Shown: one piece after another, positions 5,592 to 58,349 of the stretch | Layout of the letters: the number at the start of each line of letters is the position of its first letter | Position numbering within the stretch: position 1 is the stretch's first letter | NCBI GenBank assembly: GCA_964429055.1 | Contig: CAYSAK010000003.1 | Location: forward strand, 5,962 to 69,961 | Direction of reading: 5' to 3' | DNA length: 64,000 nucleotides | DNA from: an uncultured Candidatus Saccharibacteria bacterium | GTDB lineage: Bacteria; Patescibacteriota; Saccharimonadia; Saccharimonadales; Saccharimonadaceae | The notes under the pieces: model-generated | Databases searched by the model: none | What the model was told of the DNA's origin: nothing | The model's input: only the letters and a program-made list of their open reading frames with translations | Program-made: the position numbers and the translations under genes

Positions 5592-7559
5592 TTATAGCAT
5601 AAACTCTTTGATTTTGGCGATTTCATCGCGAAGTAAAGCAGCTTTTTCGAATTCGAGGTTGGCGGCAGCGAGTTGCATCTCGGACGACAACTGTTTTACT
5701 AGGTTTGGTAGTTCATCTTTTGGAATTTTTTTAATATTTAATTTGCTCTCAACTTCTTTTTCTGGAATAATTGCTCGAAGTCCGAGCGAAACCTCTTTTT
5801 TAATGGAGGTTGGCGTGATATTGTGCTCAGCATTGTATTGTTTTTGGATTTCGCGACGGCGATTAGTTTCGGAAATGGCTTTTTCCATACTTTCGGTGAT
5901 GAAGTTGGCGTACATGATGACTTTACCTTCTACGTGTCTAGCGGCACGACCAATTGTCTGAATGAGAGCTGATTCACTACGTAAGAACCCTTCTTTGTCC
6001 GCATCAAGGATGGCTACCAAGGATACTTCTGGAAGATCTAGGCCCTCACGAAGAAGGTTAATGCCTACTAGTACATCATAGACACCTTCGCGTAAATCTC
6101 TTAGAATATCGCTTCTTTCCAAGGTGTCTACGTCGGAATGAATGTAGGCCGTCTTAACACCGCGTTCTTTCAAATGGTCGGTTAAATCTTCTGCCATTCG
6201 TTTGGTAAGAGTCGTAATTAGCGTGCGTTGACCTTTGGCAATGCGTTTGTCAATTTCCTCCATTAAATCGTCGATTTGCCCGTCTGAACTTCGTACTTCG
6301 ACTTCTGGGTCGAGTAAACCAGTTGGGCGAATGACTTGCTCGGCTGGTTCTGGTGAGTGTTCTAATTCATATTCGCCTGGCGTGGCGGACACATAAATAG
6401 CTTGGTTCACGCGTTTTTGAAACTCGCCATAAGTTAATGGCCGGTTATCTAGTGCTGAAGGTAGTCTAAAGCCATAGTCGACTAGGGTTACTTTTCTGGC
6501 GTGGTCACCATTATACATGCCGCGAACTTGTGGTAAGGTCATGTGCGATTCATCCACGATCAAAAGGTAATCGTCTGGGAAGAAGTCGAGCAGGGTGGAA
6601 GGCGGTTCATCGGCTTTTCTTCCTTCTAGGTGTCTGGAATAGTTTTCAATTCCTTTTACAAAACCGGTGCTTTCGAGCATTTCGAGATCATATTTGGTGC
6701 GTTGGGATAATCTTTCGGCCTCTAGATATTTTTCATGTTCTTTAAAATAAGCCAATCGTTCATTAAATTCTGCGCGAATAGCATCAAGCGCTCTTTTTAG
6801 TTGATCTTTTGGCGTGGCATAATGCGTGTTTGGAAAAATGTGCACTTTTTCTGGTTTTTCGCGCGTTTCAAAAGTCAAAGGATCGACGATTTTGATTTCT
6901 TCTAGAGTATCAAATCCGAATTCAAAGCGGTAGGCAAATTCACCATTGGCTGGATACAGATCAATAGTGTCGCCCATTACGCGAAAATTGCCACGTTCAA
7001 ATGCAAGATCATTGCGGTGGTACTGAATGTTAACTAGTTTGCGAATAAAATCTAGTTGCGAAATGTTTTCGTAGCGTTTTATTTCGAAGGACATTTCTAA
7101 GTAGTTTTCTGGTGAGCCAATACCGTAGATGCAGGATACTGAGGCGACTACGATGACGTCATTTCGCGAAAGTAGGGCTTCCGTGGTGCCATGGCGCAGG
7201 CGGTCGATTTCGTCATTAATAGCAGAATCTTTTTCAATATAAGTGTCGGTTGAGGCGATGTATGCTTCTGGTTGGTAATAATCAAAATAAGATACAAAAT
7301 AATGGACTTCGTTTTCCGGGAAAAACTCTCTAAATTCGGAATATAGTTGAGCGGCTAAAGTTTTGTTGTGAGCGAGGACCAGGGTTGGTTTTTGTACATT
7401 CTTTATAATATTAGCCATAGTAAAAGTTTTACCAGAGCCAGTTACGCCAAGTAAGGTCTGTTCTTTTACACCTGCTAAAACGCCGTCCGTAAGCTGTTTG
7501 ATAGCTCTTGGTTGATCACCAGTCGGTTGGTATTTAGACACTAATTTGAATTTTGTCAT
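5592..7559 (-). CDS. uvrB: Excinuclease ABC subunit B
   Basis: 655 aa. Walker A GVTGSGKTFTMAN, DESH box (VDESHMTLPQ), helicase motifs, and a C-terminal UVR domain (LEFEKAALLRDEI). Confidence 0.97.
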   Translation of the reverse strand: MTKFKLVSKYQPTGDQPRAIKQLTDGVLAGVKEQTLLGVTGSGKTFTMANIIKNVQKPTLVLAHNKTLAAQLYSEFREFFPENEVHYFVSYFDYYQPEAYIASTDTYIEKDSAINDEIDRLRHGTTEALLSRNDVIVVASVSCIYGIGSPENYLEMSFEIKRYENISQLDFIRKLVNIQYHRNDLAFERGNFRVMGDTIDLYPANGEFAYRFEFGFDTLEEIKIVDPLTFETREKPEKVHIFPNTHYATPKDQLKRALDAIRAEFNERLAYFKEHEKYLEAERLSQRTKYDLEMLESTGFVKGIENYSRHLEGRKADEPPSTLLDFFPDDYLLIVDESHMTLPQVRGMYNGDHARKVTLVDYGFRLPSALDNRPLTYGEFQKRVNQAIYVSATPGEYELEHSPEPAEQVIRPTGLLDPEVEVRSSDGQIDDLMEEIDKRIAKGQRTLITTLTKRMAEDLTDHLKERGVKTAYIHSDVDTLERSDILRDLREGVYDVLVGINLLREGLDLPEVSLVAILDADKEGFLRSESALIQTIGRAARHVEGKVIMYANFITESMEKAISETNRRREIQKQYNAEHNITPTSIKKEVSLGLRAIIPEKEVESKLNIKKIPKDELPNLVKQLSSEMQLAAANLEFEKAALLRDEIAKIKEFML

Positions 7560-10500: not shown

Positions 10501-13500
10501 GATAAACCGAGGAAGGATCCACTACGTTTACAGTTATGATATTGCTATTTGTAGCATGGGAATCCGTACCAGTAATCGAGATGTAAGCTGTGCCTTCGGC
10601 TACACCAGTTACCACGCCAGTCGAAGAATCAACTGTAGCTATACTGGTGTTACTTGATGAGAATGTAAAGGTTTCAAGGTCAGTTGCATTTGCTACCGAA
10701 GCGGTGGTGTTACCACCCTCTACCACCGTAAGGGTATTATTGGAAACTTGAGCAAGTGCTACTGTACCTTTCCATTGAGCATAATAAGTTGTATCGCCAC
10801 TTGGCACTGTTGTACTAGAAATTTGAGTTCCACCAGAAGACGCAGTGTACCAACCTTGGAAAATATGATCGGTATAGGTTGGATCAGTCTGTGGGTAAGC
10901 TGTATTTAACTCACTACCAGGAGTGATTGTTTCCGTAAAGGTCGCTGTTCCGTTTTGGCGATCAAAAGTGATCACATAATTTGCCGGCGGCACAAAGTAT
11001 TTTTCAAGGTATGCTTCAGGAAATACGATTGTCGCACGTGGCGCATTCGCAGAAGTATTACCATGCGTTAAGCCACGACTCCTCGTCTGAATCCGGTTAT
11101 TATAATTAGTCTGTTTTTCGAGCCAAATACCATCGGTAATCGTGGTGTTTGCAAAGGCTGATTTTTCAAACAAGTATAAACTTGACCCATCGGTAGGAGT
11201 TAGACCAGCATTAGTGCCACCCCAAAGACCGTTGGTAATTTCAGGATAGGTCATGAATCGAGCCGCCTTGCCAGCGTAATCACCATCTGAATAAGTCACT
11301 AGGTGTGGGTTATCCCAAACCGGAGTTGAAGGACTCTGTGGGTCTAGCACAGCATTCGGAAGATAAGTGAGTGCATTGTTGTAAGATTGACTTATATTTG
11401 TTAAGTTAGCATAATGGACTAATTTTGCATTTCCATTTTCCATACCGAAATAATAAAATCTTTCAGTCTCAGCATCATATATCCCATCATAGTCTACATC
11501 ACAATCATAAGCAGCACCAGGTTTCAAAGTCAGAGAATTTACTAGATATCCATAGGTAATATTTTGTGAAGCCGAAAAACCTGTGCTACGACAACCGCCA
11601 CCACTGCTGTCAGTAGTTTGCAAACATTGCTCAACATGAAGTTCTTCTGCAGTCCTACAAACAAAGTCGCCAGGAAGCCAATGGGCATGGTATTCAATAG
11701 AAGCCGTAATTTGTGTTGAAGTGTCTAATTTGGTGCCGGTGCCATTAGGCCCAGTATACCAACCTTCTAACACATACCCAGATCTTTCCGTATAAGGGAT
11801 CTCGGTAAGTGTTGCACCACCCCCCACCGAAAGATCACTCACGCTATAACCGCCAGCCGCATCAAACGAAACCGTATAGGAGCTACCAGTTACGGTCACC
11901 TCAATCGTTTGCGTAGTGCTGGACCTTGTGCCCGTCATTGTGATAATAGCAGTACCGGCCGCTACACCAGTTACAAGTCCAGTGGATGGATCAACTGAGG
12001 CAATGGAACTATTATTCGAACTAAATGTATATGGCTCGAGCTCAGCCGAGTTAGTGACAATAATGCTTTCTGTGTCACCTGTATTTATATTAATTGTCGA
12101 ATTTGTAATTTGCGCCAATGTAACTGTTTTTGTCCAATGCGCAGTATACGTTTCGTCAGAATCTGGCACCGTAGCTGCATTTACTAATTGGTTGCTTTCG
12201 TCATACCACCCATCAAATAGCCAATTTGTCCTAGCCGGGGTTTCTAGATTGTTGCCAATCGCATCGCCATCCACTATTAACATAGATGAACCACCCGCTA
12301 GCGTACCACCATTCACATCTAAAGTAATTTCATGCAAGTTTGATTCATCAAAATCACCTAACCTAATATACATATTACTTAATTCACCTTCAAGAATCCG
12401 CTTCCCTGCTGTACAACCTTCGGAACAATTCACATTGTCCGGGTAAGCTCCAAACCAAGCACTAAGTCCAAATTGTTGATTAAACGAAGTATAATCTTGA
12501 AGTTCAATCAACGGGCCATTATCTATGCTTGAATAAATTACGCCGTTGATTCTAAAGATTCGAATGTCAGTGCCAGCGAAAGCGTTAGTCCCAGATTTTG
12601 ATACAATTCTAGCACCATCAGTCGTGGTGGGCGCACCATAGGTCGATTTGATTTCGATCCCGCTACCATTCCGACGAATCACTAAGCCTGGCGATTTACC
12701 ACCCCACGGACTAGCGGTCACGCTAGACGACAATTTATCATTGAAGATAGTCGACTGAGATTCCGGTTGTTCAGTTGGTATATAGCGGTCGACTGTAAAA
12801 TGCACTTCGTAATCTTTGTTATAATTTGACGCACTATAAAGTGCTACTCCAGTATCAATGAATTTATAACTTGAATAATCAGAACATTCTGAACCAGAAA
12901 GATATCCATTATTTGTGTCTTCTGCTCCATCAAATATACATTTTCCCATCTGGCTCCAAACTATCGGGAATGGATCGGTTAGCCAAATTGCGTAAAGTGT
13001 AATATTGGTGCCATCCACGGTCTGATCAATCGGGTAATCGTCACCAGGCTGGTAAATTGTACCTGAGCATTCATCATTACCAGTATTAGAATTATAGGTA
13101 GTTGCGACCGTGCACCAACCACCAAACGATCTTACTGCTGTAGCGTTCATTACTGGTACGGCATTACTGAGTGCGGCATGAGAATCAGCGGCTGGCGTAC
13201 CGCCGTCAATATTTAATGCTTGTGGATTTGGCGAAGGCATACTTGTTACGGTTTCGTTAGTATTATCGTCATAGGTGATGTTATAGACGATTGAATTAGC
13301 CACTGCCATTAAGACGTAAGTATGAGTGTAGGTGTCGGCCGGCAAGCTCATGTCAATTCTGGCGCCGAAGGCAATGGTGTAAGTGTCGGCTACGTTATTT
13401 GCGGCGGTAGTAACTGCCAAAAGACTACCAGTGGTTGGCGCAATTGGTAAGAAGTTTGAATTCTGGATGGTAGTGTTGATGTTGTTACTGGTTGTGACAT

Positions 13501-13906
13501 ATTGACTTGGTTTATATCCCCATTGATTATTGTAGATGCTATTATTTGTGAAAGTTGTTTCGTCAATAGCTGTACTTATAGACGTAATTTCGTCGTCGTT
13601 TCCATTAACTAAACTCGTAGAATTCTCAGCTGCGATAATCAAACTATAGCCAGTGAAATTATCGGTCGTGACACTAATGGTGTTGTTTGCAGTTTTACCA
13701 AAAGTACCACTAGAAGAAGGAAGAATATTGATGCTGAGTAGTGGGGCGCTGTCGCTAATGGTCAAGGTGCTTTGTTTGGCAATTGCACCTGCAGAAGGAG
13801 TGTTGTGAGCGCAAAAAACAATTGTTATAAACGTGCATAGTAGTGCATACAAAATACCTTTATGTTGCACCTGTGAAATACAGTCTACTTGTCTTTTGTT
13901 TTTCAT
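7562..13906 (-). CDS. Giant (2114 aa) multidomain cell-surface protein with a C-terminal tyrosine-phosphatase domain and C-terminal TM anchor
   Basis: N-terminal signal/TM segment. Several Listeria-Bacteroides (Flg_new)-type repeats (YxVTFxxNGG...F.GWY....TLYA.W pattern). Three Big_2-like modules (TFSSN.[ST]SIA[ST]VD.STG.VTGV..GT). Two LamG/ConA-like modules (DYE[VI].FT... / MY[IV][RK]LG). A PTP domain (NVRDLGG ... HCRVGADRTG), a Ser/Pro linker, and a hydrophobic C-terminal helix followed by KNKKDEEGS. Confidence 0.85.
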   Translation of the reverse strand: MKNKRQVDCISQVQHKGILYALLCTFITIVFCAHNTPSAGAIAKQSTLTISDSAPLLSINILPSSSGTFGKTANNTISVTTDNFTGYSLIIAAENSTSLVNGNDDEITSISTAIDETTFTNNSIYNNQWGYKPSQYVTTSNNINTTIQNSNFLPIAPTTGSLLAVTTAANNVADTYTIAFGARIDMSLPADTYTHTYVLMAVANSIVYNITYDDNTNETVTSMPSPNPQALNIDGGTPAADSHAALSNAVPVMNATAVRSFGGWCTVATTYNSNTGNDECSGTIYQPGDDYPIDQTVDGTNITLYAIWLTDPFPIVWSQMGKCIFDGAEDTNNGYLSGSECSDYSSYKFIDTGVALYSASNYNKDYEVHFTVDRYIPTEQPESQSTIFNDKLSSSVTASPWGGKSPGLVIRRNGSGIEIKSTYGAPTTTDGARIVSKSGTNAFAGTDIRIFRINGVIYSSIDNGPLIELQDYTSFNQQFGLSAWFGAYPDNVNCSEGCTAGKRILEGELSNMYIRLGDFDESNLHEITLDVNGGTLAGGSSMLIVDGDAIGNNLETPARTNWLFDGWYDESNQLVNAATVPDSDETYTAHWTKTVTLAQITNSTININTGDTESIIVTNSAELEPYTFSSNNSSIASVDPSTGLVTGVAAGTAIITMTGTRSSTTQTIEVTVTGSSYTVSFDAAGGYSVSDLSVGGGATLTEIPYTERSGYVLEGWYTGPNGTGTKLDTSTQITASIEYHAHWLPGDFVCRTAEELHVEQCLQTTDSSGGGCRSTGFSASQNITYGYLVNSLTLKPGAAYDCDVDYDGIYDAETERFYYFGMENGNAKLVHYANLTNISQSYNNALTYLPNAVLDPQSPSTPVWDNPHLVTYSDGDYAGKAARFMTYPEITNGLWGGTNAGLTPTDGSSLYLFEKSAFANTTITDGIWLEKQTNYNNRIQTRSRGLTHGNTSANAPRATIVFPEAYLEKYFVPPANYVITFDRQNGTATFTETITPGSELNTAYPQTDPTYTDHIFQGWYTASSGGTQISSTTVPSGDTTYYAQWKGTVALAQVSNNTLTVVEGGNTTASVANATDLETFTFSSSNTSIATVDSSTGVVTGVAEGTAYISITGTDSHATNSNIITVNVVDPSSVYRITFDPQNGENTSYADVLVGNTIGGQMPVNNPTWANHVFQRWYDSATGNTVTSATEPTGNMTVYAEWKLDVTQAVIADNDLTVPAGESVTIGISNSSALESYTFSSNDTSIATVDASTGVVTGVNAGTVNIIMTGSQSNLTKTIEVEVTPAVVVQYRVTFNTNGGTLDNNASSTRDVDSGSAVGSLPTASKTNYRFFGWYTDDGTFYEEVDPSTVVNNNVTYYARWVEDISSFPIVFAEINACQFNGTSAITGDYCLKDEVNNTSIDKTKTYIDTGVSLYTAANYNSDYEIGFTIVDFDFDSIRQMTMMQDKYENGTNWPGLAVRRYDETNYIEFTHSMNGTKASDHSILASSVKRVVVVRQSGVIKYSINGGNLITLQDTNSLTAQNFDHTVWFGASAKSNKTPQRQSIAKITDMYVKLGAPTEYTVDLEVDGGELPANAQSNYTITIGDPVGALPTPTAPSANYTFAGWYDGNTLVSDGTQYIPTGNVVLTAHWTYSSSDTPVPFDVSNNATRGYKTIINQWVQSPVNITTFNTASPINNSTWGNTSELSEAQFWTTLKNNFETNDCKVPSYGDAATTTPNPTAWANGSVDCSKPDVYDTLIGAPLNVYLYNNQTLGAQVSYAEASDGIIRNLIPGNTYKWVKDGDNTVYGYVTVTSNNSDYGTRWVDAGTIRNVRDLGGLPADTDGDGTVDAYVKYGKLFRGEKLGTESATKLTNLGITKEYNVGDEYASDTHLSNYEYSQVIHYNFNYNSGDENNPNSNYMKAWNVVTDIMEDVTNANNPQNIYFHCRVGADRTGTVAYLLEGLLGVPDEERYQEYSLTHLSGLFDRTRYYKEKSSSNNLKFVYMLGYLKTNADILAWYMQNPNASSSLIASFKSAMTTQISSPSPAPANNPQQSLSTPSSSDSKKSTISKDTSVNDGYAAPLGVYETSIEDDFSVSETQSLSAAELAVVTATAVASGAAVSYVIAKNKKDEEGS
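7890..8490 (-). other. Protein tyrosine phosphatase domain (Y_phosphatase3-like) inside the giant surface protein
   Basis: The NxRDLGG entry motif (IRNVRDLGGLP) lies 116 aa upstream of the CX5R P-loop FHCRVGADRTGT. The P-loop is encoded at 8105-8134 (revcomp cac tgc cgt gta ggc gct gac cgg act ggc). Confidence 0.75.
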
Positions 13907-44061: not shown

Positions 44062-44155
44062 AAAGAACAACCCCCTTATTTTTATTGCAAAAGGTAAGCG
44101 TCACCTAGTGCGTTATCAATTTTAGCACTGGTGATCATAAAATACAAGATTAGTA

Positions 44156-44184
44156 TTGACTTTTTTAAGCATATGTGGTATAAT
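44156..44184 (+). promoter_or_regulatory. Sigma70-type promoter of the 109-aa gene
   Basis: TTGACT 44156-61, 17-nt spacer, TGgTATAAT (-10 at 44179-84). The 57-nt leader contains GCATTTTATGTCGTT and GGGAGGGTATCTTAAAAG. Confidence 0.6.
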
Positions 44185-44241
44185 GATAATTAGGACGGCA
44201 TTTTATGTCGTTACTTCGTACCTGGGAGGGTATCTTAAAAG

Positions 44242-44571
44242 ATGAATAAGGATTTCTTTTATTCCAAGATTTGGATGACGTTTGTCGGTCGTTCACCGTT
44301 CGTGTACAAACTGTCTAACCCTGACTATGTGTTGGCGATCGATAGCGATAAGTCGCATTTCGAAAAAGAGAATGCCCACTGGCATCTCTGCTACAAAGAG
44401 AAGCCAATCGCGCGAATTACAGCCTACGGCTGTTGGACCTCGTTCCCGAAAGTTCCGACCGATATCAGGTTGGAGGCTGAAGTTATCACTTCGGAAAAGA
44501 TGATCGAAATCATTCGTGCCTGTGGCAAAACTCCTATTTCGGAGCCCGCACTTGTATCATTACGTTCCTAA
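44242..44571 (+). CDS. Hypothetical protein (109 aa)
   Basis: Strong SD GGGAGGG. The weak pattern HFEKENAHWHL...I recalls DUF4160-type small proteins, but this is not secure. Confidence 0.5.
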   Translation: MNKDFFYSKIWMTFVGRSPFVYKLSNPDYVLAIDSDKSHFEKENAHWHLCYKEKPIARITAYGCWTSFPKVPTDIRLEAEVITSEKMIEIIRACGKTPISEPALVSLRS

Positions 44572-44595
44572 TCTACCTATCCCCTTTCCCCCTTA

Positions 44596-44622
44596 CCCCG
44601 GTCAAAATAGACCGGGGTTTTT
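44596..44622 (+). terminator. Rho-independent terminator
   Basis: CCCCGGTC-aaaata-GACCGGGG followed by TTTTT. Confidence 0.75.
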
Positions 44623-44645
44623 CTTGCCATTTTTTATATATTAAT

Positions 44646-44651
44646 ATACAA
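44646..44651 (+). promoter_or_regulatory. -10 box (TACAAT) 7 nt upstream of ATG 44659 (leaderless module-1 transcript)
   Basis: tacaat-aagctt-ATGGA has the same start context as the paralog (tataat-gagctt-ATGGA at 47115-47129). Confidence 0.4.
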
Positions 44652-44658
44652 TAAGCTT

Positions 44659-45237
44659 ATGGAAAATTTTTCTGGCTCAGTAGTAGAATCGAGGTCAGTA
44701 GTTCCGCCACTACCGAATATTCCTTCAGAGATGCCACCTAAGAATAAAAAATTGATTTTAATTCTTGTGGTTATCGAGGTAATAGTTGTGCTTGGCTTTT
44801 TGGCTGCATTGCTTATTACGCTTCTTCAAGAGCCAGAGGGTAGTATTACGATGGATGACGTTGTGGAGGATTATTCTTCTAGTGAAAAACCTGCGGAGGT
44901 GGATTTGTATCAGGAAGAAAGTTTAGTATTATCTAGAATTGCTAATACCGGGACCATTACTGCTAGTGATTGTCGTAGTTTTGGTAATATATATAGTAAA
45001 TATGTAGATATCGATATTTTCCCGTTTGAAATATGTAATGGGCCGACGGTTTCTGTTGTTGCACGCGAAGTTTCCATCAATACATATAATGATATTGAAT
45101 TTTATCAAGTTGGTCTTGGTGATGAAAAAAACATTTACACTATCACGACATATGATGGCTTTAAGATGTTTTATGGCGTTAGCTATGGAGCTACTAGTAA
45201 ATATGAACCAAAGAAAGTAGAGGTTATTAATGAATAA
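44659..45237 (+). CDS. Single-pass membrane protein, module-1 accessory (paralog of 47127-47723)
   Basis: 192 aa. Short cytoplasmic N-terminus, TM helix (LILILVVIEVIVVLGFLAALLITLL) and an extracytoplasmic ~135-aa domain. Shares blocks with the 198-aa paralog (GS.VE.R, NKK.ILI, DC..xxNIY, Y.VGLG...Y). Confidence 0.6.
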   Translation: MENFSGSVVESRSVVPPLPNIPSEMPPKNKKLILILVVIEVIVVLGFLAALLITLLQEPEGSITMDDVVEDYSSSEKPAEVDLYQEESLVLSRIANTGTITASDCRSFGNIYSKYVDIDIFPFEICNGPTVSVVAREVSINTYNDIEFYQVGLGDEKNIYTITTYDGFKMFYGVSYGATSKYEPKKVEVINE

Positions 45238-45475
45238 AACTAGCCTAAAAAAGAAAGGAGTTTCCTCGACCATGAAAAAGACCAAACACAAAAAAACGAC
45301 GAGGGTTAGAAAAACTACCTATCGTTATAAATTAAGTAAGCCAGTGCGGGCTCTGTTTACATTTGAAGCGGTAGCTATTCTTGCTTCAATCGTGGTACTT
45401 ACGATTGTGGCGCTAGGGCCAAATGGTAGTGTGGATATTCCAAGCGATGTAAGTTATGTTAAGGAGGACCAATGA
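45230..45475 (+). CDS. Small basic single-pass membrane protein
   Basis: 81 aa. Lys/Arg/Thr-rich N-terminus and one TM helix. Overlaps both neighbours (8 nt and 4 nt), which suggests translational coupling. Confidence 0.45.
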   Translation: MNKTSLKKKGVSSTMKKTKHKKTTRVRKTTYRYKLSKPVRALFTFEAVAILASIVVLTIVALGPNGSVDIPSDVSYVKEDQ

Positions 45476-46704
45476 TGAACGTTCTCACCACCTTTGCCGC
45501 TGATGTCTGTAAGTGTATAGATACTAGTATGTTTGGTAGAGTCTGTAGTACTGGTAATGGTAATGAAATCTACTATGTTCTCAATATAGTCATTAATGTA
45601 TTAACGGCTGGTATTGGTATTTTAGCGGTCATTGGTATAACCTACTTTGGTGTCCAATATCTCACTGCTAAAGACGACCCAGCTCAAGTTAAAAAGGCTA
45701 AATCTAGACTCATGGCTATTATTATCGGTCTAGCAGCTTATGCCACTATTTATGCTGGTTTGTACTTCTTATTGCCAAACTTCACAGCTGAATCTGGTTC
45801 TTTTGACACCTGTACAGAAGCAAGTCAAGGAGATTCACATCCGGTTTCACCAGATAAACCCGATACGCCAGATACTCCGGACACGCCAGACACTCCAGAT
45901 GTACCAGACACGCCAGATCCAGGTGAGGATGAAGATGATCCAGAAGCATGTAGCTTGAACTTGAGTGTTGTAGAAAACAATGCAAGAGCCGAAATTGCCT
46001 CGACTTCGCCAGTGTTTGTCTTGGCCGATACTAAGACTTCAACAGGTAAAGGTCTTTGCGAAAAACCGACCAGTAAAGCTAATAAAATTGCTAATACTGC
46101 AGTAATGATGGCTTGGCCATATTCTGATTCGTCTACCGATGGTAATAAAGTTGGGAAGTGTGTCAATGGTAATGGTAGCTTGATTAGTTATGGCACGACT
46201 CAAGCAAAATGTAATACCAAGAAAAACTATAACAAAAGTACTTGTTGTGCGAACTCGTTGAAACCACAGAACATTACAGTCCTGACCGCCAATGGTATTA
46301 AATCTAGTAGACAACTTGGCTGGGCCAAAGACTGTGCTAAATTTGTTGGTGCTGCCGTTAAGTATGCTGGAGTTGATCCGGATTTTCCAACCTATTATAC
46401 TGGTAATTTAGATAGCTATCTTTCTAAGCAAGCTAAGAAGAGTAATGGCAAATGGGAACAAATTGAGAATAAAGGGAGCACAAGAGGTCTTGAACCGGGA
46501 GATGTGTTTGTCTATCCATCAAAAACTATTAATGGTACTAAGGTTTACGGGCATACGATGATTTTTGTGGGAAGTAAAGGATATAAAAGTTTTAATATGA
46601 CAGAAGCTTCGCTTAATAAGCGTGTGGCAAGAACTACCTCTGCAACCTTTAAGCTAACTTATAACGGAAAGAAAGTTAATTATCATATATATAGGATTAA
46701 ATGA
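45472..46704 (+). CDS. VirB2/TrbC-like (CPR T4SS-pilin-type) two-helix N-module + PDT-repeat linker + papain-fold (NlpC/P60/CHAP-like) hydrolase domain
   Basis: 410 aa. N-module IYYVLNIVINVLTAGIGILAVIGITYFGVQYLTAKDDPAQVKKAKSRLMAIIIGLAAY. Linker PDKPDTPDTPDTPDTPDVPDTPDP. C-terminal Cys...His pattern KDCAKFVGAAV ... GDVFVY......GHTMIFVG....TEAS. SD AAGGAGG. Confidence 0.6.
   Translation: MMNVLTTFAADVCKCIDTSMFGRVCSTGNGNEIYYVLNIVINVLTAGIGILAVIGITYFGVQYLTAKDDPAQVKKAKSRLMAIIIGLAAYATIYAGLYFLLPNFTAESGSFDTCTEASQGDSHPVSPDKPDTPDTPDTPDTPDVPDTPDPGEDEDDPEACSLNLSVVENNARAEIASTSPVFVLADTKTSTGKGLCEKPTSKANKIANTAVMMAWPYSDSSTDGNKVGKCVNGNGSLISYGTTQAKCNTKKNYNKSTCCANSLKPQNITVLTANGIKSSRQLGWAKDCAKFVGAAVKYAGVDPDFPTYYTGNLDSYLSKQAKKSNGKWEQIENKGSTRGLEPGDVFVYPSKTINGTKVYGHTMIFVGSKGYKSFNMTEASLNKRVARTTSATFKLTYNGKKVNYHIYRIK
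45478..45800 (+). repeat. Conserved N-module DNA, copy 1 (paralogous to 47731-48050)
   Basis: By eye about nine of ten positions are identical with copy 2 over >200 nt (for example gaaatctactatgttctcaatatagtcat in both). Differences are mostly at third codon positions. Confidence 0.85.
45851..45921 (+). repeat. In-frame 9-nt (Pro-Asp-Thr) tandem repeat
   Basis: cca gat aaa ccc gat acg cca gat act ccg gac acg cca gac act cca gat gta cca gac acg cca gat cca. Confidence 0.85.
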
Positions 46705-47108
46705 TGAAAGAATCACAAAAGAAGACTTTAATAATTGTAATAATATCAATCATTGCTACTTTATTGATAGTGGGAGGTATTGCTCTTACAATATACTTTA
46801 TTAACGATTACCGGGCTGGAGGTCCTTATAGTGAAGAGGATTTTCTTTACCAAGAAGCGGCTGATGATGAATATGAGGCGATGGTCGAAGAATATCTCGA
46901 AGAGTACCCGATTGCCACGGAGCTTCCAATTATCATGGTGAATTGGCGTATTGACTATGGTCTTTGTGAAACTTCTGATGGAGAGTTTTGTGTGATGATT
47001 ACGGCGGTGAATGATGAATATCGCAATAAAGCACTGGAAGTTTTAAGAGGTCTAGAATATTACGAAGAAGGTAAATACACTATAGAATTTTTTAGCGATT
47101 TAGAATAA
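46701..47108 (+). CDS. Single-pass membrane protein with acidic extracytoplasmic domain (candidate immunity/partner of the upstream hydrolase)
   Basis: 135 aa. TM helix LIIVIISIIATLLIVGGIALTIYFI. 4-nt overlap (ATGA) with the upstream gene. The proposed function is inference from position only. Confidence 0.45.
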   Translation: MMKESQKKTLIIVIISIIATLLIVGGIALTIYFINDYRAGGPYSEEDFLYQEAADDEYEAMVEEYLEEYPIATELPIIMVNWRIDYGLCETSDGEFCVMITAVNDEYRNKALEVLRGLEYYEEGKYTIEFFSDLE

Positions 47109-47111
47109 TCG

Positions 47112-47120
47112 TGCTATAAT
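47112..47120 (+). promoter_or_regulatory. Extended -10 promoter (TGcTATAAT) 6 nt upstream of ATG 47127 (leaderless module-2 transcript)
   Basis: gtgctataat-gagctt-ATGG with no SD. Confidence 0.5.
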
Positions 47121-47126
47121 GAGCTT

Positions 47127-47723
47127 ATGGATAGTATTACATCAGGTTCTATCGTTGAACCACGGGTGGCGTTGGAGCCAAACAAATCATCAAGTAAAAA
47201 TAATAAGATTATTCTTATTATTACTATAATAATTGAGGCGATTATTATTATCTGTCTTAGTATTGCACTTATTCTTACTAATAACGCCTTAAAACAATAT
47301 GAGCCATCTAAAGAAGAAGCAGAATTAAATGAGAATAATTATATGGAGGAAGAGCCTCTATATCAGTTGACCAAAAAGGAAGCCTTAGCCTTAATGTATG
47401 TTTATTCGATGGTGAATGATGAATTAGTTAAAAATAAAACTATGCCCTCGGACTATTGTGCTGTTCTTCAAAACATATATAATTATACCCTTGGCGTTGA
47501 AGATGATATGGAGGATCCATGTGCGAGTGGTGCGATAACTCTTGTTCCAGCTGATAATATGGAAGAGGAGTTGGCGTCGGTTGGCCAGATCTATATTGGT
47601 GTAGGTTTAAATGGGGAAACTTATAATTATTATGTATTCTCAGATTTTAGTGTGATGAGCCATGTTGACATGACTGAGTCCATACCGACTAATTCTATAA
47701 CAATTAATGTATCGGGTTCCTAG
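47127..47723 (+). CDS. Single-pass membrane protein, module-2 accessory (paralog of 44659-45237)
   Basis: 198 aa with the same architecture and conserved blocks as the 192-aa protein. Confidence 0.6.
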   Translation: MDSITSGSIVEPRVALEPNKSSSKNNKIILIITIIIEAIIIICLSIALILTNNALKQYEPSKEEAELNENNYMEEEPLYQLTKKEALALMYVYSMVNDELVKNKTMPSDYCAVLQNIYNYTLGVEDDMEDPCASGAITLVPADNMEEELASVGQIYIGVGLNGETYNYYVFSDFSVMSHVDMTESIPTNSITINVSGS

Positions 47724-47724
47724 T

Positions 47725-49620
47725 ATGTTTTCCCTTTTCACCACCTTCGCCTCAGTCTGTAAATGTGTATCAACTAATTTGTTTGGTGATGTCTGTAGTA
47801 ACGGTGAAGGCCTTGAAATCTACTATGTTCTCAATATAGTCATCAATGTTCTAACAGCTGGTATTGGTATTCTAGCGGTCATTGGTATAGCCTACTTTGG
47901 TGTCCAATATCTCACCGCTAAAGATGATCCAGCTCAAGTAAAGAAAGCAAAATCTAGACTTATGGCTATCATCATTGGTCTAGCAGCTTATGCTACTATT
48001 TATGCAGGTTTAACCTTTTTGCTACCAAACTTTACAATTGAGTCTGGTTCTATTAATAACTGTACGCCAGCTGATCCAGATGATCCACATCCGGTCTCGC
48101 CTGAGCCTGAGCCGGAGCCTGAGCCTGAACCTGAGCCTGAACCTGAGCCTGAACCTGAGCCTGAACCTGAGCCGGAGCCTGAGCCAGGTGAGCGTAGTCC
48201 TTATTGTGGACCTGAAGCCCCAGGAAAATTCGGCAGTTTATCAAGCGTGACTAATAAACAATATCGGGACGGTTCGACTGTAAGTGATCATACTACTAAA
48301 AAGTATACTACCACATTTGGTCGTGTTTATTATGTTTTTAAACAAGCCAATCCTGTTTGGAAGAATGCAAGAGCTGGCAGTCAAGGTGATACTTTGGGAA
48401 ATAATGGATGTCTACGGACATCAACGGCGACAGTTTTACGTTCTTTTGGTGCAGATGTGACTCCTGCAGATTTTGCGTGGGCTGGTGGGTATAGTTTTAC
48501 AAAGGCCGACAAATATATAAAGGATAATAATTTACCAGTCAAGCGTTATGAACTAAAGAAGCCTTATGCAGATAATATTTGGAATGTGTTAAAAAAACAT
48601 GGTGCGGTAATAATATGGACAGAAGCTACATCGGTGTTTACTGAAAGAAAACATAAGTTACCAATCGTAGATTATAAAACTGGAAGTAATAATTCGAGGC
48701 TAGTATATATTGCGGATACGACTGGGAAGAGTAGTAATAATGGTTGGAAGGATTTGGATAATTATGTAATAGCGAAAGGAAATGTGAAGGCGGCGGTGGC
48801 TTTTGAGCCGACTACAACACTTAATTGTGGTGCTACTGGAGGCGGCGACTCGGGTGATTCAGGTGATAGTGGTACGGAAACCCCAGATATCAATTCTATC
48901 GGTAAGGGTGACACTTGTGGTCCAGAAGGCCCAGCCAGATCGGCGGGCGTATCGCTTGTCAGTCCTTATTCCTCTATGGACAAAAGCGTGTATGGTAAAT
49001 TAACTAAAAAATACACCACTACTAAAAATCGGGTTTATTATGTTTACCGACAGGATGATGATCCTTGGAAAGATGCGTCCGCTGGTAGTAGCAGTAAAAT
49101 GAAGGATGAAGGTGAGTCACGTACTCTGATTGCTGATATTATGCGTTCATTCGGTGCTGAAGTTACCCCGCTACACTTTAGTGGTTCTGGTATTTCTGGT
49201 AAGGCCGCTGCAATTAGCCGAGCCGAGTCATTAATCAGTAAACTTAGTTTGCCGCTCGTTGGTGGTGTAACTAAATATACTTCTGATTATGAAAACAAAA
49301 TTAAGACAACTTTGAATAATGGTGGTGCCGTGTTGATAAAGGTTAAAGATGGTATCTTTAACCATAAATCCGGCGCTACACATATTGCGTTGATAGATAT
49401 AAAAGAGGTGAGCGGTAAAACTAAGGTATTCTTAGTGGATTCGTTTGGACGTACTAAAGCTAGTAAGGATTCTTCGGTTCCTGTAAATAGCTGGGTCGAT
49501 CTTGATATTGTTGTTAATACTAGCAAGACTGGCATTCAAGAAATCCATGTTTTTACACCTAAAGCATCGGCAATTACCTGTCCAAAGGCTAACAATGTGC
49601 CAATCGAATATGAACAATAA
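47725..49620 (+). CDS. VirB2/TrbC-like two-helix N-module + (Pro-Glu)n linker + two tandem papain-like (C39-like) domains, the second lacking the catalytic Cys
   Basis: The track ORF starts at 47707. ATG 47725 (MFSLFTTFA) aligns with the paralog's N-terminus and sits 1 nt after the upstream stop. Domain 1: YYVFKQANPVWKN....LGNNGCLRTSTATVLRSFGADVTP ... KHKLPIVDY...LVYIADT. Domain 2: YYVYRQDDDPWKD....KDEGESRTLIADIMRSFGAEVTP ... THIALIDI...VFLVDS. Confidence 0.6.
   Translation: MFSLFTTFASVCKCVSTNLFGDVCSNGEGLEIYYVLNIVINVLTAGIGILAVIGIAYFGVQYLTAKDDPAQVKKAKSRLMAIIIGLAAYATIYAGLTFLLPNFTIESGSINNCTPADPDDPHPVSPEPEPEPEPEPEPEPEPEPEPEPEPEPEPGERSPYCGPEAPGKFGSLSSVTNKQYRDGSTVSDHTTKKYTTTFGRVYYVFKQANPVWKNARAGSQGDTLGNNGCLRTSTATVLRSFGADVTPADFAWAGGYSFTKADKYIKDNNLPVKRYELKKPYADNIWNVLKKHGAVIIWTEATSVFTERKHKLPIVDYKTGSNNSRLVYIADTTGKSSNNGWKDLDNYVIAKGNVKAAVAFEPTTTLNCGATGGGDSGDSGDSGTETPDINSIGKGDTCGPEGPARSAGVSLVSPYSSMDKSVYGKLTKKYTTTKNRVYYVYRQDDDPWKDASAGSSSKMKDEGESRTLIADIMRSFGAEVTPLHFSGSGISGKAAAISRAESLISKLSLPLVGGVTKYTSDYENKIKTTLNNGGAVLIKVKDGIFNHKSGATHIALIDIKEVSGKTKVFLVDSFGRTKASKDSSVPVNSWVDLDIVVNTSKTGIQEIHVFTPKASAITCPKANNVPIEYEQ
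47731..48050 (+). repeat. Conserved N-module DNA, copy 2 (paralogous to 45478-45800)
   Basis: See copy 1. Confidence 0.85.
48100..48186 (+). repeat. In-frame hexanucleotide (Pro-Glu) microsatellite-like repeat
   Basis: cct gag cct gag ccg gag cct gag cct gaa ... gag cca. It encodes an uninterrupted (PE)n run. Confidence 0.9.
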
Positions 49621-49632
49621 TAGGATTTACTT

Positions 49633-50445
49633 ATGACAGGCGAGAAATTATCATCCAATTCAAATACTAGTCCTAATCCATGGGATAGTTTGGTAGACAA
49701 GCCCGAACGACCATTAAGCGGTCCAGAATCTATGGCTAGACGTTTTGCTAAGGAAGTTCACGATATTCAGATTGACTTTGCTGCGCGACTTGAATGTTCT
49801 GCCGAGAAAGGTGAGGAGCAATTGCCTAAAAAGGAGTTTGAACGTTGGGAAGATGATTATCATGATATGTGGCGTGGTATGGAAGGGCAAGTTCGTGAGG
49901 CAAATCGTCAAAATACTGGTGATACTATGGCCAAGGCTGCTGAACTTGAAGACCCCGTAGTTGCTTATGTCAGGGATACCGAACTATATCAGACCGTTGA
50001 AGCTCAAGCTGGTCATTATTACGATGAGCGTAGTGATGCTCTTTTAAAGGCCATTCGTGGTTCATCGAGCCCTGACAAAGAAGGGGATTTAGAATTTGCT
50101 AGAGGTTTTCGTCGCGCCGTGATGGAACACTTGGCTTATAAATACATGGAAGGCAATGGTAGTTGGCAAAGTGGTGATGCTGATTATTATAATCGCTCCC
50201 GTACTAGGGCACATAATGATGTGATTAAGCGTTTGAATGGCCTGAATGCCCTTTCTGAAAAATATGGTACGCGCCGTTTTACACCACGTGATTTTTGGAC
50301 TAGCGAAAACCAAAATCAGACTCCGGAAATGTCTCGTCGGATGCGCTATGATCGTGATATTGTTGAGGAATACTACGCTATTGCTTTTGCTTACGAAGAG
50401 GAAGAGCTAAAGAAAGAACAAGAAAGAAACCGTAAATTCTATTGA
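49633..50445 (+). CDS. Hypothetical soluble protein (270 aa)
   Basis: No TM segment, charged and helical. No recognisable motif. Last large gene of the island. Confidence 0.5.
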   Translation: MTGEKLSSNSNTSPNPWDSLVDKPERPLSGPESMARRFAKEVHDIQIDFAARLECSAEKGEEQLPKKEFERWEDDYHDMWRGMEGQVREANRQNTGDTMAKAAELEDPVVAYVRDTELYQTVEAQAGHYYDERSDALLKAIRGSSSPDKEGDLEFARGFRRAVMEHLAYKYMEGNGSWQSGDADYYNRSRTRAHNDVIKRLNGLNALSEKYGTRRFTPRDFWTSENQNQTPEMSRRMRYDRDIVEEYYAIAFAYEEEELKKEQERNRKFY

Positions 50446-50470
50446 CTTTTTAAGTATTTTGTGCTATAAT
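50442..50470 (+). promoter_or_regulatory. Sigma70-type promoter of the 85-aa gene
   Basis: TTGACT 50442-47 (overlaps the upstream stop codon), 17-nt spacer, TGcTATAAT (-10 at 50465-70). The leader contains GCATTTTATGTAGTT and GGGAGGG. Confidence 0.6.
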
Positions 50471-50515
50471 AGAGTTATATAATACGCATTTTATGTAGTT
50501 GAGGGAGGGACTGTC

Positions 50516-50861: not shown

Positions 50862-50946
50862 TGGTGCCCGAGACAGGACTTGAACCTGCACACCAAATGG
50901 CATATGCTCCTAAGGCATACGTGTATACCAATTTCACCACTCGGGC
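50862..50946 (-). tRNA. tRNA-Leu (anticodon UAG), class II, CCA encoded
   Basis: Revcomp GCCCGAGTGGTGAAATTGGTATACACGTATGCCTTAGGAGCATATGCCATTTGGTGTGCAGGTTCAAGTCCTGTCTCGGGCACCA. The acceptor stem GCCCGAG/CTCGGGC pairs, the anticodon stem is TATGC/GCATA with loop CTTAGGA, and the T-loop is TTCAAGT. TGcTATAAT lies a few nt upstream (50956-50964). Confidence 0.9.
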
Positions 50947-51015: not shown

Positions 51016-51501
51016 TTATAAACCGCGTTTTGACATCACAAATGCAGTAACGCTGGTGGTAAGAAGACCTAACACTACAGCAGTGTAAAGGAAGTCTTCT
51101 GGACCGGTGTTTGGCATATTGGAGGTTGTAGCAGCTTTACTGGAGCTAGAGCTTGAGCTAGAACTAGAATTTGAGCTTGAATTTGAACTTGAGGTGTTGT
51201 CAGTCTTGTTGGTTGAAATTTCACCAATCTTTGAGCTCTCTTTCTTCTCTTCGCTTTCTTTGCTTTCGTCAGACTTATTATCGTTTTCTTTTTTGTCGTT
51301 TTCCTCTGACTTCTTGTCGTCGGTTTCAGAAATCACAAATGAAGAATTATTTTCGCCACCGATATTGTTTTTGCGTGACGATTTATTGGTTGCCACCACG
51401 ATAATCGCCGCGATCAAAATCAAAATGAGAACCATCGCCGCAATAATTACAGCGAGAATTTTACGACGTTCCTTCTTATCTAAATCAGTAGCAGTATACA
51501 T
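51016..51501 (-). CDS. Small Ser/Asp/Lys-rich surface protein with N-terminal TM/signal anchor and MPNTG sorting signal
   Basis: 161 aa. TM helix ILAVIIAAMVLILILIAAIIVVA, low-complexity SSSNSSSNSSSSSSSSSSS, and C-terminal MPNTG (51103-51117) followed by a hydrophobic helix and KRGL. Confidence 0.65.
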   Translation of the reverse strand: MYTATDLDKKERRKILAVIIAAMVLILILIAAIIVVATNKSSRKNNIGGENNSSFVISETDDKKSEENDKKENDNKSDESKESEEKKESSKIGEISTNKTDNTSSSNSSSNSSSSSSSSSSKAATTSNMPNTGPEDFLYTAVVLGLLTTSVTAFVMSKRGL

Positions 51502-57257: not shown

Positions 57258-58349
57258 TTACATCCCTGGTGGATAAATGTAGTTGAGGTTGGCGGCAGAA
57301 CTTGCCGGGATGGTTGAGCGAATCGCTACGAATGCGCGGTAGTTGTAGTTCATCTCTGTGGCGACGATAGAACCATCGGCGTTGACGGCTTCAACATAAC
57401 CGACGTGGCCATACCAGCCAGCGCTACTTTGGAAGACAGCACCAGCTACTGGCGTACCATGTTTGACGGTGTAACCAGCATTGGCGGCACGGACTGCCCA
57501 GGTATTGGCGTTACCCAAGTTGGATGGTAAGTCTTGGCGGTTATACCAGGCCCACTGAGTACATTGGCCAGCTACATAAGGACCGCCGAGACCGTAAAAG
57601 GTACCAAGTACTTCAATATTTTGACGGGCTGAGTTGCTACCAAGGTAGGTGTAGTAGTAGGTAGCTCTAACTGGTGGGACGTATTCTGGGCGCTCGGTCT
57701 CTGGTAAAGTACCACCCTTAATTAGGATTCTCATCCCCGTAGAAATACCAGATACCTCAAGGTCGTTTAGGGCGATGATTTCAGCGACCGAGGAGCCATA
57801 TTTAGAGGCAATTTCTTCAACAGTATCGCCAGATTTCACAGTATAAACAATACCGCTGGTACTTGGAATATACAAAACTTCTCCCGCCGAGATATTGGTA
57901 TTTTTCTTGCCGTTAGACCAACGAATTTGGTCGGTGGAAACTTTATAATAGGAAGCAATTGAGGCCAAATCATCACCTTCTTTTACCACATATTCAATCA
58001 CACCACGGGAGACGGCAATATCGGTAATGTTTGGTTTTTCAATTTTACCGGTGGAAGTCTGGCCGGCAGTATACATTGAGGTGGTTACCACATAATTGGA
58101 GGCCACATCTGTGGCACTAGCAAGATTAAAAGTATCAGATACATCAGCCACCACATACATGGCCGATAACTGATCAACTGAAACTTTGTAGTTATCCTCG
58201 GCAAAAGTGTTTAAACTTAGGCTAGTATCGGAGTTATTCTTATCAAGTGAGCCGACAAAAACAATAGTTAGTGTTAAAACACTAGTCACGATATAAGGCA
58301 AAAGGCCTTTTAATCGTTTTAAATCAAATTTTTTCTTCCTTTTCGTCAT
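57258..58349 (-). CDS. Cell-wall hydrolase: N-terminal TM anchor, two LysM domains, C-terminal CHAP domain
   Basis: 363 aa. LysM (YVVKEGDDLASIASYYKVSTDQIRWSN; YTVKSGDTVEEIASKYGSSVAEIIALN). CHAP (GQCTQWAWYN ... GWYGHVGYVEAVNADGSIVATEMN). Confidence 0.85.
   Translation of the reverse strand: MTKRKKKFDLKRLKGLLPYIVTSVLTLTIVFVGSLDKNNSDTSLSLNTFAEDNYKVSVDQLSAMYVVADVSDTFNLASATDVASNYVVTTSMYTAGQTSTGKIEKPNITDIAVSRGVIEYVVKEGDDLASIASYYKVSTDQIRWSNGKKNTNISAGEVLYIPSTSGIVYTVKSGDTVEEIASKYGSSVAEIIALNDLEVSGISTGMRILIKGGTLPETERPEYVPPVRATYYYTYLGSNSARQNIEVLGTFYGLGGPYVAGQCTQWAWYNRQDLPSNLGNANTWAVRAANAGYTVKHGTPVAGAVFQSSAGWYGHVGYVEAVNADGSIVATEMNYNYRAFVAIRSTIPASSAANLNYIYPPGM

Follow-up and report, generated by a model that had tools for sequence, protein, structure and literature searches.

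Two large proteins with a shared N-terminus and unrelated C-termini

The locus at positions 44659-50445 of a 64-kb stretch of DNA from an uncultured Candidatus Saccharibacteria bacterium (64,000 nucleotides, hereafter the window) raises a simple question: what is the use of two neighbouring genes whose large products begin with almost the same sequence and end with unrelated ones? A preliminary description had answered by analogy with polymorphic effector-immunity loci, and had placed the genes in a tRNA-adjacent island. We favour, with moderate confidence, another answer. The two proteins would be extracellular cysteine hydrolases tethered by a functional pilin module of the kind found in type IV secretion systems (T4SS), and encoded in a chromosomal operon of a ruminant-gut Saccharibacterium. 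In other words, surface-tethered, possibly pilus-displayed, cell-wall hydrolases are the best reading of this locus.

The locus comprises seven open reading frames (ORFs) on the + strand that overlap or lie at most 18 nt apart (Table 1). All the ORFs of the preliminary description were found again where it had placed them, the second large protein having 631 residues instead of 632. They form two cassettes with a common build: a single-pass membrane protein of ~190 aa comes first, and each cassette contains one large protein, of 410 aa or 631 aa, that starts with the shared N-terminal module (N-module). Identical or related cassettes, in the same gene order, are found in four other assemblies or contigs, namely the Saccharibacteria assembly L005 and three short contigs (L042, L043 and the contig of P0013).

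Assignment of the N-module to the T4SS pilins

The 410-aa and 631-aa proteins are alike only over their first ~120 residues (BLASTP, E=3e-57), with nothing significant beyond the module. The claim that a highly conserved N-module of ~110 residues is common to both is therefore well founded: over ~106 residues, the paralogues are 83% identical in protein sequence and 84% identical in DNA sequence (over 300 nt). The module starts with a tail of ~30 residues that contains Cys, after which come two hydrophobic helices (aa 33-64 and 81-101) with a loop of net positive charge (TAKDDPAQVKKAKSRL) in between. It is followed by a strongly acidic Pro-rich spacer, which is (PDT)n at aa 127-158 of the 410-aa protein and (PE)n at aa 126-154 of the 631-aa protein. 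AlphaFold2 (AF2) predicts a helix-turn-helix at aa 31-64 and 69-99. Both proteins have the two hydrophobic helices and the short positive loop that define VirB2/TrbC pilins, and both are three to five times too long for a small propilin. The loop has 5 K/R for 2 D/E, the segment after the second transmembrane (TM) helix has 18 D/E for 1 K/R, and Cys residues are numerous in the N-terminal tail and in the catalytic domains.

Searches with protein profiles point to the same family. The Pfam profile T4SS_pilin (PF18895) matches the 410-aa protein with 24.6 bits (E=2.6e-5) and the 631-aa protein with 22.4 bits (E=1.3e-4), for a cut-off of 26.6. The NCBIfam profile NF045849 (pilin-like conjugal transfer protein) also gives matches below its cut-off (E about 5e-6, ~26 bits for a cut-off of 40), and the match to TrbC (PF04956) is weak (E=0.078). 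When the module was searched for by itself among 5.8 billion proteins, it returned only short stand-alone proteins of 95-179 aa, 46-64% identical to it, with typical signal peptides and pre-annotated as PF18895 or PF04956. Relatives connected to the module with E-values of up to 1e-27 bear one or the other of these two families. Among the fusions with a C-terminal extension, 46 of 55 match PF18895 and 6 match TrbC; the corresponding counts for relatives with an N-terminal extension or several modules are 31 of 36 and 7. The residues that are invariant in the pilin family (G55, G60, K77, R79, G86 and P102) are kept across the 55 fusions. Given the PF18895 and NCBIfam matches and the stand-alone pilin homologues, we assign the N-module to the VirB2/TrbC-type T4SS pilins, the family that had been proposed for it from its hydrophobic helices and a sequence motif.

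We considered whether the 81-aa or 198-aa ORFs, which lie just upstream of the two fusion genes, could be pilin leaders split off by a frameshift or left in a pseudogene. We rejected this explanation, since two separate genes are seen in each of five genomes or contigs while the junction between the upstream ORF and the pilin gene differs: the two overlap by 17 nt in the window and are separated by 3 nt in L005, which lacks the 81-aa gene.

The C-terminal domains are predicted papain-fold hydrolases

The C-terminus of the 410-aa protein has by itself no Pfam match at E<=1, and searches of solved structures by sequence with the whole proteins matched low-complexity linkers only. Its relatives are more informative. 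P0011, which is 42% identical to the 410-aa protein, is pre-annotated with both NLPC_P60 (PF00877) and T4SS_pilin. We aligned 19 diverse sequences of this domain from pilin fusions and found Cys288, Gly343-Asp344 and His361 to be invariant or nearly so, with an E/Q-A motif following. The profile built from this alignment matches, among solved structures, almost exclusively NlpC/P60 and CHAP peptidoglycan hydrolases (best E=1.6e-4), including Tn916-like and other wall hydrolases. Pfam finds NLPC_P60 in 6 of the 19 relatives (best 2.3e-6) and CHAP in 4. The AF2 model of the 410-aa protein, computed from an alignment of 5 sequences, was unusable (predicted local distance difference test score, pLDDT, of 39.5), and Foldseek searches with it gave noise only. 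At the profile level, these results support a divergent NlpC/P60-CHAP-like cysteine hydrolase domain.

Two features of the linker region vary. An insert of ~40 residues bounded by Cys (45949-46059, aa 160-196) is present in the window and in P0008 and absent from P0009, P0010 and P0011. The number of spacer repeats varies between strains.

The C-terminal part of the 631-aa protein is an internal repeat of two domains that are ~32% identical (E about 1e-18 to 1e-22). Peptidase_C39_2 (PF13529) matches the first one with 23.0 bits, for a cut-off of 24 (E=1.3e-4), and relatives reach 2.5e-11. The AF2 model has a pLDDT of 80-90 over most of both domains. With this model, Foldseek retrieves staphopain (5.7e-4) and the Bacillus C39-like peptidase 3erv (1.3e-3), both with a probability of 1.0, as well as cathepsins and a CdiA-CT toxin (8ssm, E=4e-3). 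In domain 1, Cys229, His310 and Asp316 are invariant in the orthologues and include the Cys-His dyad of papain-like enzymes. Domain 2 lacks this dyad: Ser465 takes the place of the Cys in all four orthologues (GESRT versus GCLRT). It is likely to be a non-catalytic or altered copy. Because the Ser is conserved in all four orthologues, domain 2 may nevertheless keep some residual activity. The papain-fold C-termini that had been proposed for the two proteins are consistent with the profile matches of the 410-type domain and with the structural matches of the 631-aa protein.

Pilin fusions are frequent among the closest relatives

To place these two proteins in a wider family, we searched 1.84 billion cluster representatives with a profile and retrieved 13,185 relatives. 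Among the best 150 of these 13,185 representatives, 63 are stand-alone pilins, 48 begin with the pilin and go on for 150 residues or more in a C-terminal extension, 29 end with the pilin after a long N-terminal extension, and 3 have 6-8 tandem pilin modules. These last proteins are P0018 (552 aa), P0030 (820 aa) and P0057 (555 aa). The C-terminal extensions belong to at least eight unrelated families: 33 are NlpC/P60-like and 6 are C39-like, both counts including the window proteins, and the others fall into six smaller groups. The Pfam families found in the extensions are Peptidase_C39_2, the alpha/beta-hydrolases Peptidase_S9, Abhydrolase_2 and Esterase_PHB, endolysin-like domains, Peptidase_M23, GDSL lipase, choline-binding repeats and Big_2. 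The combination of a conserved pilin module with a variable extracellular module is thus a real and widespread architecture, and the expectation that the N-module would be joined to unrelated C-termini across genomes is borne out by this survey. The related loci that we could recover from genomes are all from Candidatus Saccharibacteria or Nanosyncoccus.

We inspected the gene neighbourhoods of the related pilins. They lie in the order dnaG-rpoD-pilin-diacylglycerol (DAG) kinase or with genes for P-type ATPase, TsaD, RlmH, FemAB and FtsK. No T4SS gene was found next to these related pilins, the conserved neighbours being DnaG, RpoD, the DAG-kinase-like protein, P-type ATPase, TsaD, RlmH, FemAB and FtsK.

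The closest stand-alone pilin is found in the dnaG-rpoD-pilin-DAG-kinase-like context at about 25 loci (L006-L040, e.g., L019 6813-11296). A different arrangement is seen elsewhere in L019 (13417-19014), where five tandem stand-alone pilin genes lie beside a gene for a polytopic membrane protein of 1055 aa without Pfam match. This may be a T4SS-linked pilin array with a VirB6-like protein.

Pilin modules are homogenised and catalytic domains are mosaic

The two parts of the fusions seem to evolve in different ways. In L005, the two pilin modules (7930-8330 and 10010-10410) show 100% DNA identity along a stretch of about 390 nt that has sharp borders; in the window, they are 84% identical. In one related lineage, represented by P0008 and P0012, the N-terminal ~130 aa of the paralogues are identical. 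Between genomes, the module is more divergent: the window and L005 are 68% identical, and the N-module is 83-87% identical between strains. This pattern indicates that the pilin modules evolve in concert by gene conversion, recently so in L005.

The two C39-like domains tell another story. Domain 1 is 84% identical to its counterpart in L042 and only 32-35% identical to those of P0013 and P0014. Domain 2 shows the opposite pattern, with 55% identity to L042 and 80-86% to P0013 and P0014. These opposite patterns identify the predicted catalytic domains as a recombinational mosaic between strains.

Proposed function of the fusions

VirB2-like pilins occur frequently in Patescibacteria, of which 2,417 of 3,035 assemblies have VirB4 (PMC12102498). 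In S. epibionticum, the pilin array and the T4SS are essential for epibiotic growth (PMC10633639). Relaxases and coupling proteins are lacking from the Saccharibacterial T4SS/pilin system, for which no substrate is known (PMC10633639, PMC12102498).

In this context, we propose that the hairpin of the N-module sits in the membrane with both termini outside and the basic loop on the cytoplasmic side. The positive-inside rule suggests this orientation, as do the Cys content and the acidity of the spacer. With both termini outside, the enzymes would be extracellular, each on a stalk of 30-60 Pro-rich residues, and this acidic spacer would carry the enzyme through the cell's own wall. There, the NlpC/P60 domain would cut stem peptides or cross-links of peptidoglycan. 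The active C39-like domain would cut a peptide or protein substrate, with the help of its Cys-less twin as a binding domain. The simplest assumption is that the pilin module makes the fusions clients of the Saccharibacterial T4SS/pilin machinery. They would thus end up beside the pilus or within it, and act either at the contact between epibiont and host or by opening the epibiont's own wall for the apparatus. The ~190-aa, 81-aa and 135-aa proteins could be lineage-specific partners involved in insertion, assembly or inhibition. We infer that the module does more than anchor, because the pilin residues are kept in 55 fusions, the modules are homogenised within genomes, and domains are fused at either end of the module.

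Several observations weigh against this proposal. Neither window protein reaches the gathering score of PF18895, and a sequence search of solved structures with the pilin profile matched no solved pilin. Unlike stand-alone pilins, the fusions have no cleavable signal peptide: the ~30 residues before the first TM helix lack a hydrophobic h-region, and the ORFs allow no upstream extension. The neighbours of related pilin fusions are housekeeping genes and not virB4. Pfam scans of about 49 ORFs found no VirB4, VirD4 or VirB6 in the window, in agreement with the preliminary description; a Walker A motif is missing from all the unannotated ORFs, none of which has more than 3 predicted TM segments. 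The failure of the 410-aa AF2 model leaves the NlpC/P60 assignment at the profile level (E about 1e-4). Finally, the choice of target, host wall or own wall, is a matter of pure inference.

A serious alternative, which we hold to be possible and still short of likely, is that the enzymes serve the cell's own wall. They would be membrane-anchored autolysins or VirB1-like hydrolases for growth, division or machine assembly, with the hairpin as a mere two-TM anchor that never polymerises. The locus lies among housekeeping genes and is vertically conserved, as one would expect of such enzymes, and the fusions lack a signal peptide and are far larger than any known pilus subunit. Furthermore, Gram-positive T4SSs use TM-anchored hydrolases combining SLT with CHAP or NlpC/P60 domains, and most VirB2-bearing Patescibacteria are without a recognisable VirB1 (PMC12102498). 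The Tn916-like and other wall hydrolases matched by the 410-type profile fit this explanation, as does the only match of a tblastn search against plasmids, a marginal one (E=9e-3) to a protein with a lytic-transglycosylase domain. Known VirB1-like hydrolases (TraG of pIP501, PrgK of pCF10, CwlT of ICEBs1, Tn916 Orf14-like proteins) resemble the fusions in having an N-terminal anchor and an extracellular CHAP or NlpC/P60 domain. However, their anchors are single TM segments or lipoprotein signals and not pilin homologues. They are also encoded inside T4SS clusters and usually have an additional lytic transglycosylase or muramidase domain, of which there is none in the window fusions. A generic anchor would need neither the invariant residues of the pilin family nor the homogenisation of modules within a genome. 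The existence of proteins in which domains precede the pilin, and of others with 6-8 tandem modules, suggests that the module has a function of its own. In addition, strain-level mosaicism of catalytic domains is more typical of proteins that face another organism than of housekeeping autolysins, and the window already encodes a classical LysM-CHAP hydrolase.

True incorporation of the fusions into a pilus seems doubtful to us. If it does occur, one can imagine modular T4SS pili in which VirB2-type subunits bear enzymes on Pro-rich stalks, are co-polymerised together with ordinary pilins or placed at the base or tip of the pilus by the essential T4SS, and drill through the host wall at the site of contact. 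The enzymes of such pili would be NlpC/P60, C39-like, esterase, endolysin-like and M23 domains. Subunits that bear enzymes would go on fitting the filament thanks to the concerted evolution of the pilin, and the mosaicism of the catalytic domains would follow the chemistry of the host wall. We regard this extended version as unlikely.

Accessory genes and the effector-immunity hypothesis

The positions of the genes and domains are given in Table 1. The two proteins that open the cassettes (192 aa and 198 aa) form a lineage-specific family ('190-aa family'): both begin with an SGS-V/I-V/I-E-x-R motif at the N-terminus, cross the membrane once, and have two Cys in the ectodomain. Their proposed paralogy is clear by profile and weak by direct comparison: a profile built without the 192-aa protein matches it at E=2.7e-8, while the pairwise alignment gives 28% identity at E=0.16. 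A third member of the family (195 aa, 34% identical) follows cassette 2 in L042 (3460-4047) and L043 (4863-5450). Hence, the array of cassettes may continue beyond the contig end. An 81-aa gene is also called in GCA_016648615. The 135-aa gene always comes directly after the NlpC-type fusion in this lineage, and its product is 91% identical in L042 and L043 and 63% identical over the ectodomain in L005.

Table 1. Features of the locus and their positions in the window (aa, amino acids; TM, transmembrane segment)
Feature	Position	Strand	Remarks
109-aa soluble protein	44242-44571	+	Own transcription unit: strong promoter 44156-44184, terminator 44595-44618
Rho-independent-type terminator	44595-44618		Between the 109-aa gene and the putative operon
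Promoter-like site TTGCCA-17-TACAAT	44624-44652	+	Consensus match only; precedes the putative seven-gene operon
192-aa single-pass membrane protein, cassette 1	44659-45237	+	TM at aa 27; L043 orthologue 66% identical
81-aa basic single-pass membrane protein	45230-45475	+	L043 91% identical; absent from L005
410-aa pilin-NlpC/P60 fusion (predicted)	45472-46704	+	
Pilin module of the 410-aa protein, aa 1-106	45472-45789		TM1 45568-45663, basic loop 45664-45711, TM2 45712-45774
(PDT)n acidic spacer of the 410-aa protein	45850-45945		
NlpC/P60-CHAP-like domain, ~aa 195-410	46054-46701		Preceded by Cys-rich insert
Putative catalytic residues of the 410-aa protein			Cys288 46333-46335; Gly-Asp 343-344; His361 46552-46554
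135-aa single-pass membrane protein	46701-47108	+	Acidic two-Cys ectodomain
198-aa single-pass membrane protein, cassette 2	47127-47723	+	Orthologues 75% (L042, L043) and 44% (L005)
631-aa pilin-2xC39-like fusion (predicted)	47725-49620	+	Alternative ATG at 47707 gives 637 aa
Pilin module of the 631-aa protein	47725-48042		
(PE)n spacer of the 631-aa protein	48100-48186		
C39/staphopain-like domain 1, aa 156-370	48190-48834		Cys229 48409-48411, His310 48652-48654, Asp316
GDS linker between the C39-like domains	48838-48873		
C39-like domain 2, aa 386-631	48880-49617		Ser465 49117-49119 replaces the catalytic Cys; His553 49381-49383
270-aa soluble protein	49633-50445	+	Variable slot between cassette 2 and tRNA-Leu
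tRNA-Leu(tag)	50862-50946	-	Downstream boundary of the locus; same place in L005

The last gene of the locus differs from the others. The 270-aa protein has no hydrophobic segment, no signal peptide and no TM segment, and is cytoplasmic by sequence. Its gene is probably co-transcribed with the operon without being a conserved part of the system. In fact, the only variable position of the locus is the slot that separates cassette 2 from tRNA-Leu: it is occupied by the 270-aa gene (+) in the window, a 195-aa gene (+) in L042 and L043, and a 281-aa (-) or 286-aa (-) gene elsewhere. A protein of the same 90% cluster as the 270-aa protein is encoded on a contig that is possibly the one of P0014.

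None of these small proteins could be assigned to a known family. The Pfam and NCBIfam profiles gave only sub-threshold, TM-driven noise for the 109-, 192-, 81-, 135-, 198-, 270- and 85-aa proteins, and PHROGs matched 0 of 10 locus proteins. The accessory families (the 190-aa family and the 81-, 135- and 270-aa proteins) have no homologue near the pilin fusions of other Saccharibacteria.

These data allow us to evaluate the effector-immunity explanation, in which the pilin module would deliver or anchor swappable toxic tips, and the 135-aa and 270-aa proteins would confer immunity. We find it improbable. The locus does resemble polymorphic toxins (CDI CdiA-CT/CdiI, Rhs, LXG) in several ways: a conserved N-terminal part precedes C-termini that are unrelated within the locus and across the family, there are repeats that favour recombination (identical or near-identical N-modules being substrates for it), the hydrolase domains are mosaic between strains (domain 1, 84% versus 32-35%; domain 2, 55% versus 80-86%), and a small gene follows one tip. 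This small gene encodes the membrane-anchored, extracytoplasmic 135-aa protein, whose constant place after the NlpC-type gene is compatible with immunity, and one structural match of the C39-like domain is the CdiA-CT toxin. Yet the tips are fixed at the locus. In all five genomes or contigs, the orthologous loci have these two types of domain, and vary only in the number of domains and in their mosaic divergence. What follows cassette 2 is a gene of variable family and orientation that does not track domain 2: in P0013, this domain is 86% identical to that of the window, and a 281-aa gene (-) lies downstream instead of the 270-aa gene. The 270-aa protein, having neither signal peptide nor TM segment, could not protect against an extracellular enzyme. 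Where the preliminary description spoke of small downstream membrane proteins, the 135-aa protein is the only one to follow a hydrolase gene. Moreover, the NlpC-type pilin fusions of L014, L015, L033 and L034 are without a conserved small downstream gene. We found no orphan toxin or immunity cassettes, no consistently co-varying immunity gene, and no secretion or trafficking domains of polymorphic toxins in the window. The logic of a toxin with its matching immunity gene, which the preliminary description had seen in this locus, is therefore not upheld.

The locus is vertically inherited

The question of whether the locus is an island can be answered more directly. In L005, it has the same gene order between the same neighbours, a FAD-linked oxidase at one end and tRNA-Leu with RsmD at the other; the genes of the 192-aa and 81-aa proteins are missing from L005, where the second hydrolase has a single C39-like domain. 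We found no integrase among the window proteins with Pfam and NCBIfam, and no second copy of the 3' end of tRNA-Leu (an att-like repeat) within the window. The GC content of the locus is 0.397, for 0.421 in the window, which is no compositional anomaly. From the same position in L005, the gene order recurring on three short contigs, the normal GC content, and the lack of integrase and att site, we conclude that the locus belongs to the chromosome, is inherited vertically and is no mobile island, contrary to what its proximity to a tRNA gene might evoke when taken as a sign of integration.

The idea of a remnant of a conjugative or mobile element integrated at tRNA-Leu, with a leftover, no longer working conjugation module of the monoderm type, can draw on the position of the locus on the 3' side of this tRNA, the likeness of the N-module to the pilin-like conjugal transfer protein (NF045849) of integrative conjugative elements, the NlpC/P60 hydrolases typical of Gram-positive conjugative elements, the variable tRNA-proximal slot and the slightly lower GC content, but it is highly improbable, since the window has no integrase, relaxase, VirB4, coupling protein or att-like repeat of the tRNA end, PHROGs gives no match, and the locus has the same position in L005, its order on three short contigs, intact ORFs, and conserved N-modules (83-87%) and 135-aa proteins (91%).

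Comparison with known systems

The closest described proteins are the VirB2/TrbC pilins of Patescibacteria (Quinonero-Coronel et al. 2025, PMC12102498; Wang et al. 2023, PMC10633639), which belong to the same phylum and have the same two-helix module, basic loop and Pfam family. They also occur in arrays of several paralogues in tandem or split by non-pilin genes, as here. However, they have ~100-150 aa and a signal peptide, whereas the window fusions have 410 and 631 aa, no signal peptide, and enzymatic C-termini as predicted above. The two modules of the window are 83% identical, for a mean of 25% (maximum of 54%) within the described arrays (PMC12102498). Finally, the window fusions do not adjoin virB4.

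The principle of a pilin module carrying a globular module is known from the type IV pilins of monoderms, such as PilB and PilC of Streptococcus sanguinis, where an adhesin or an enzyme is displayed. These modular pilins belong to an unrelated family with class III signal peptides and use a different machinery from that expected for the VirB2-type module of the window. As to the enzymes, C39-like domain 1 shares the papain-like fold and the Cys-His pair with peptidases of the Peptidase_C39_2/staphopain type. ABC exporters have Cys-less C39-like domains that bind substrates without catalysis, and domain 2, also devoid of the nucleophilic Cys, can be likened to them. Unlike in known C39 or staphopain peptidases, the C39-like domains of the window come as two in tandem, and a (PE)n spacer ties them to a pilin module.

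The VirB2-like pilins of Patescibacteria and their arrays, as well as NlpC/P60 and C39-like peptidases, were already known, and what is new is the fusion of pilin and enzyme. We found no description of enzyme-fused VirB2-type pilins in full-text literature searches and key papers. To our knowledge, this would be the first case of enzyme-bearing VirB2-type pilins. The architecture may so far have gone unnoticed because the supplementary tables of S. epibionticum have 7 occurrences of PF18895 and none of PF00877 or PF13529, the entries displayed being short proteins.

If the proposed function is correct, pilin-linked wall enzymes would give a concrete output to the essential T4SS/pilin apparatus of Saccharibacteria: breaching the wall of the host or the cell's own. 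The implications would extend beyond this locus, as about one third of the nearest 150 representatives are such fusions. These proteins would be candidate host-interaction enzymes in a phylum with almost no known effectors. If the module is only an anchor, the gain in annotation is modest and amounts to two surface cysteine hydrolases and three new families of accessory proteins.

Transcription signals and surrounding DNA

The seven genes at 44659-50445 look like one operon, given their tight spacing, the terminator and promoter-like site upstream, and the weakness of the internal terminator-like matches, which are few and have 3-5 G-C pairs and poor T tracts. The 109-aa gene just upstream is conserved together with the operon: its L005 homologue is 58% identical and occupies the same position. 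Downstream, the operon is followed by an 85-aa gene and tRNA-Leu(tag).

A strong promoter and 5' region of ~60 nt (TTGACT-17-TATAAT, with an extended -10 TG) is present in two copies that flank the operon (44154-44212 and 50440-50500). They drive the 109-aa and 85-aa genes, and the same promoter precedes a 108-aa gene in L005. We rejected this flanking repeat as a candidate att site, as it corresponds to a shared strong promoter with its 5' region.

The remainder of the window is housekeeping DNA, with genes for PBP1, UvrB, UvrC, tRNA synthetases, GreA, ribosomal proteins, trigger factor, RecG, TrmD, Obg, enolase and others. The classical peptidoglycan hydrolase mentioned above, with two LysM domains and a CHAP domain, is encoded 7 kb downstream of the locus (57258-58349, -) and is also kept in L005. 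The genome therefore has conventional wall hydrolases besides the pilin fusions. Next to tRNA-Leu, in the window as in L005, lies a gene for a Ser-rich protein of 161 aa (51016-51501, -) with an N-terminal TM segment. Its C-terminus, made of an MPNTG motif, a hydrophobic segment and a basic tail, resembles a sorting signal of the sortase type.

Two other genes of the window deserve mention. The phosphoketolase is encoded in two overlapping ORFs (3477-5626, -), with XFP_N at 4646-5626 and XFP and XFP_C at 3477-4649, which could result from a frameshift, a pseudogene or a genuinely split gene. A surface-type protein of 2114 aa (7562-13906, -) has six Listeria-Bacteroides repeats, Big_2 domains and a C-terminal tyrosine-phosphatase domain (Y_phosphatase3), a mix of domains that is unusual for a putative adhesin.

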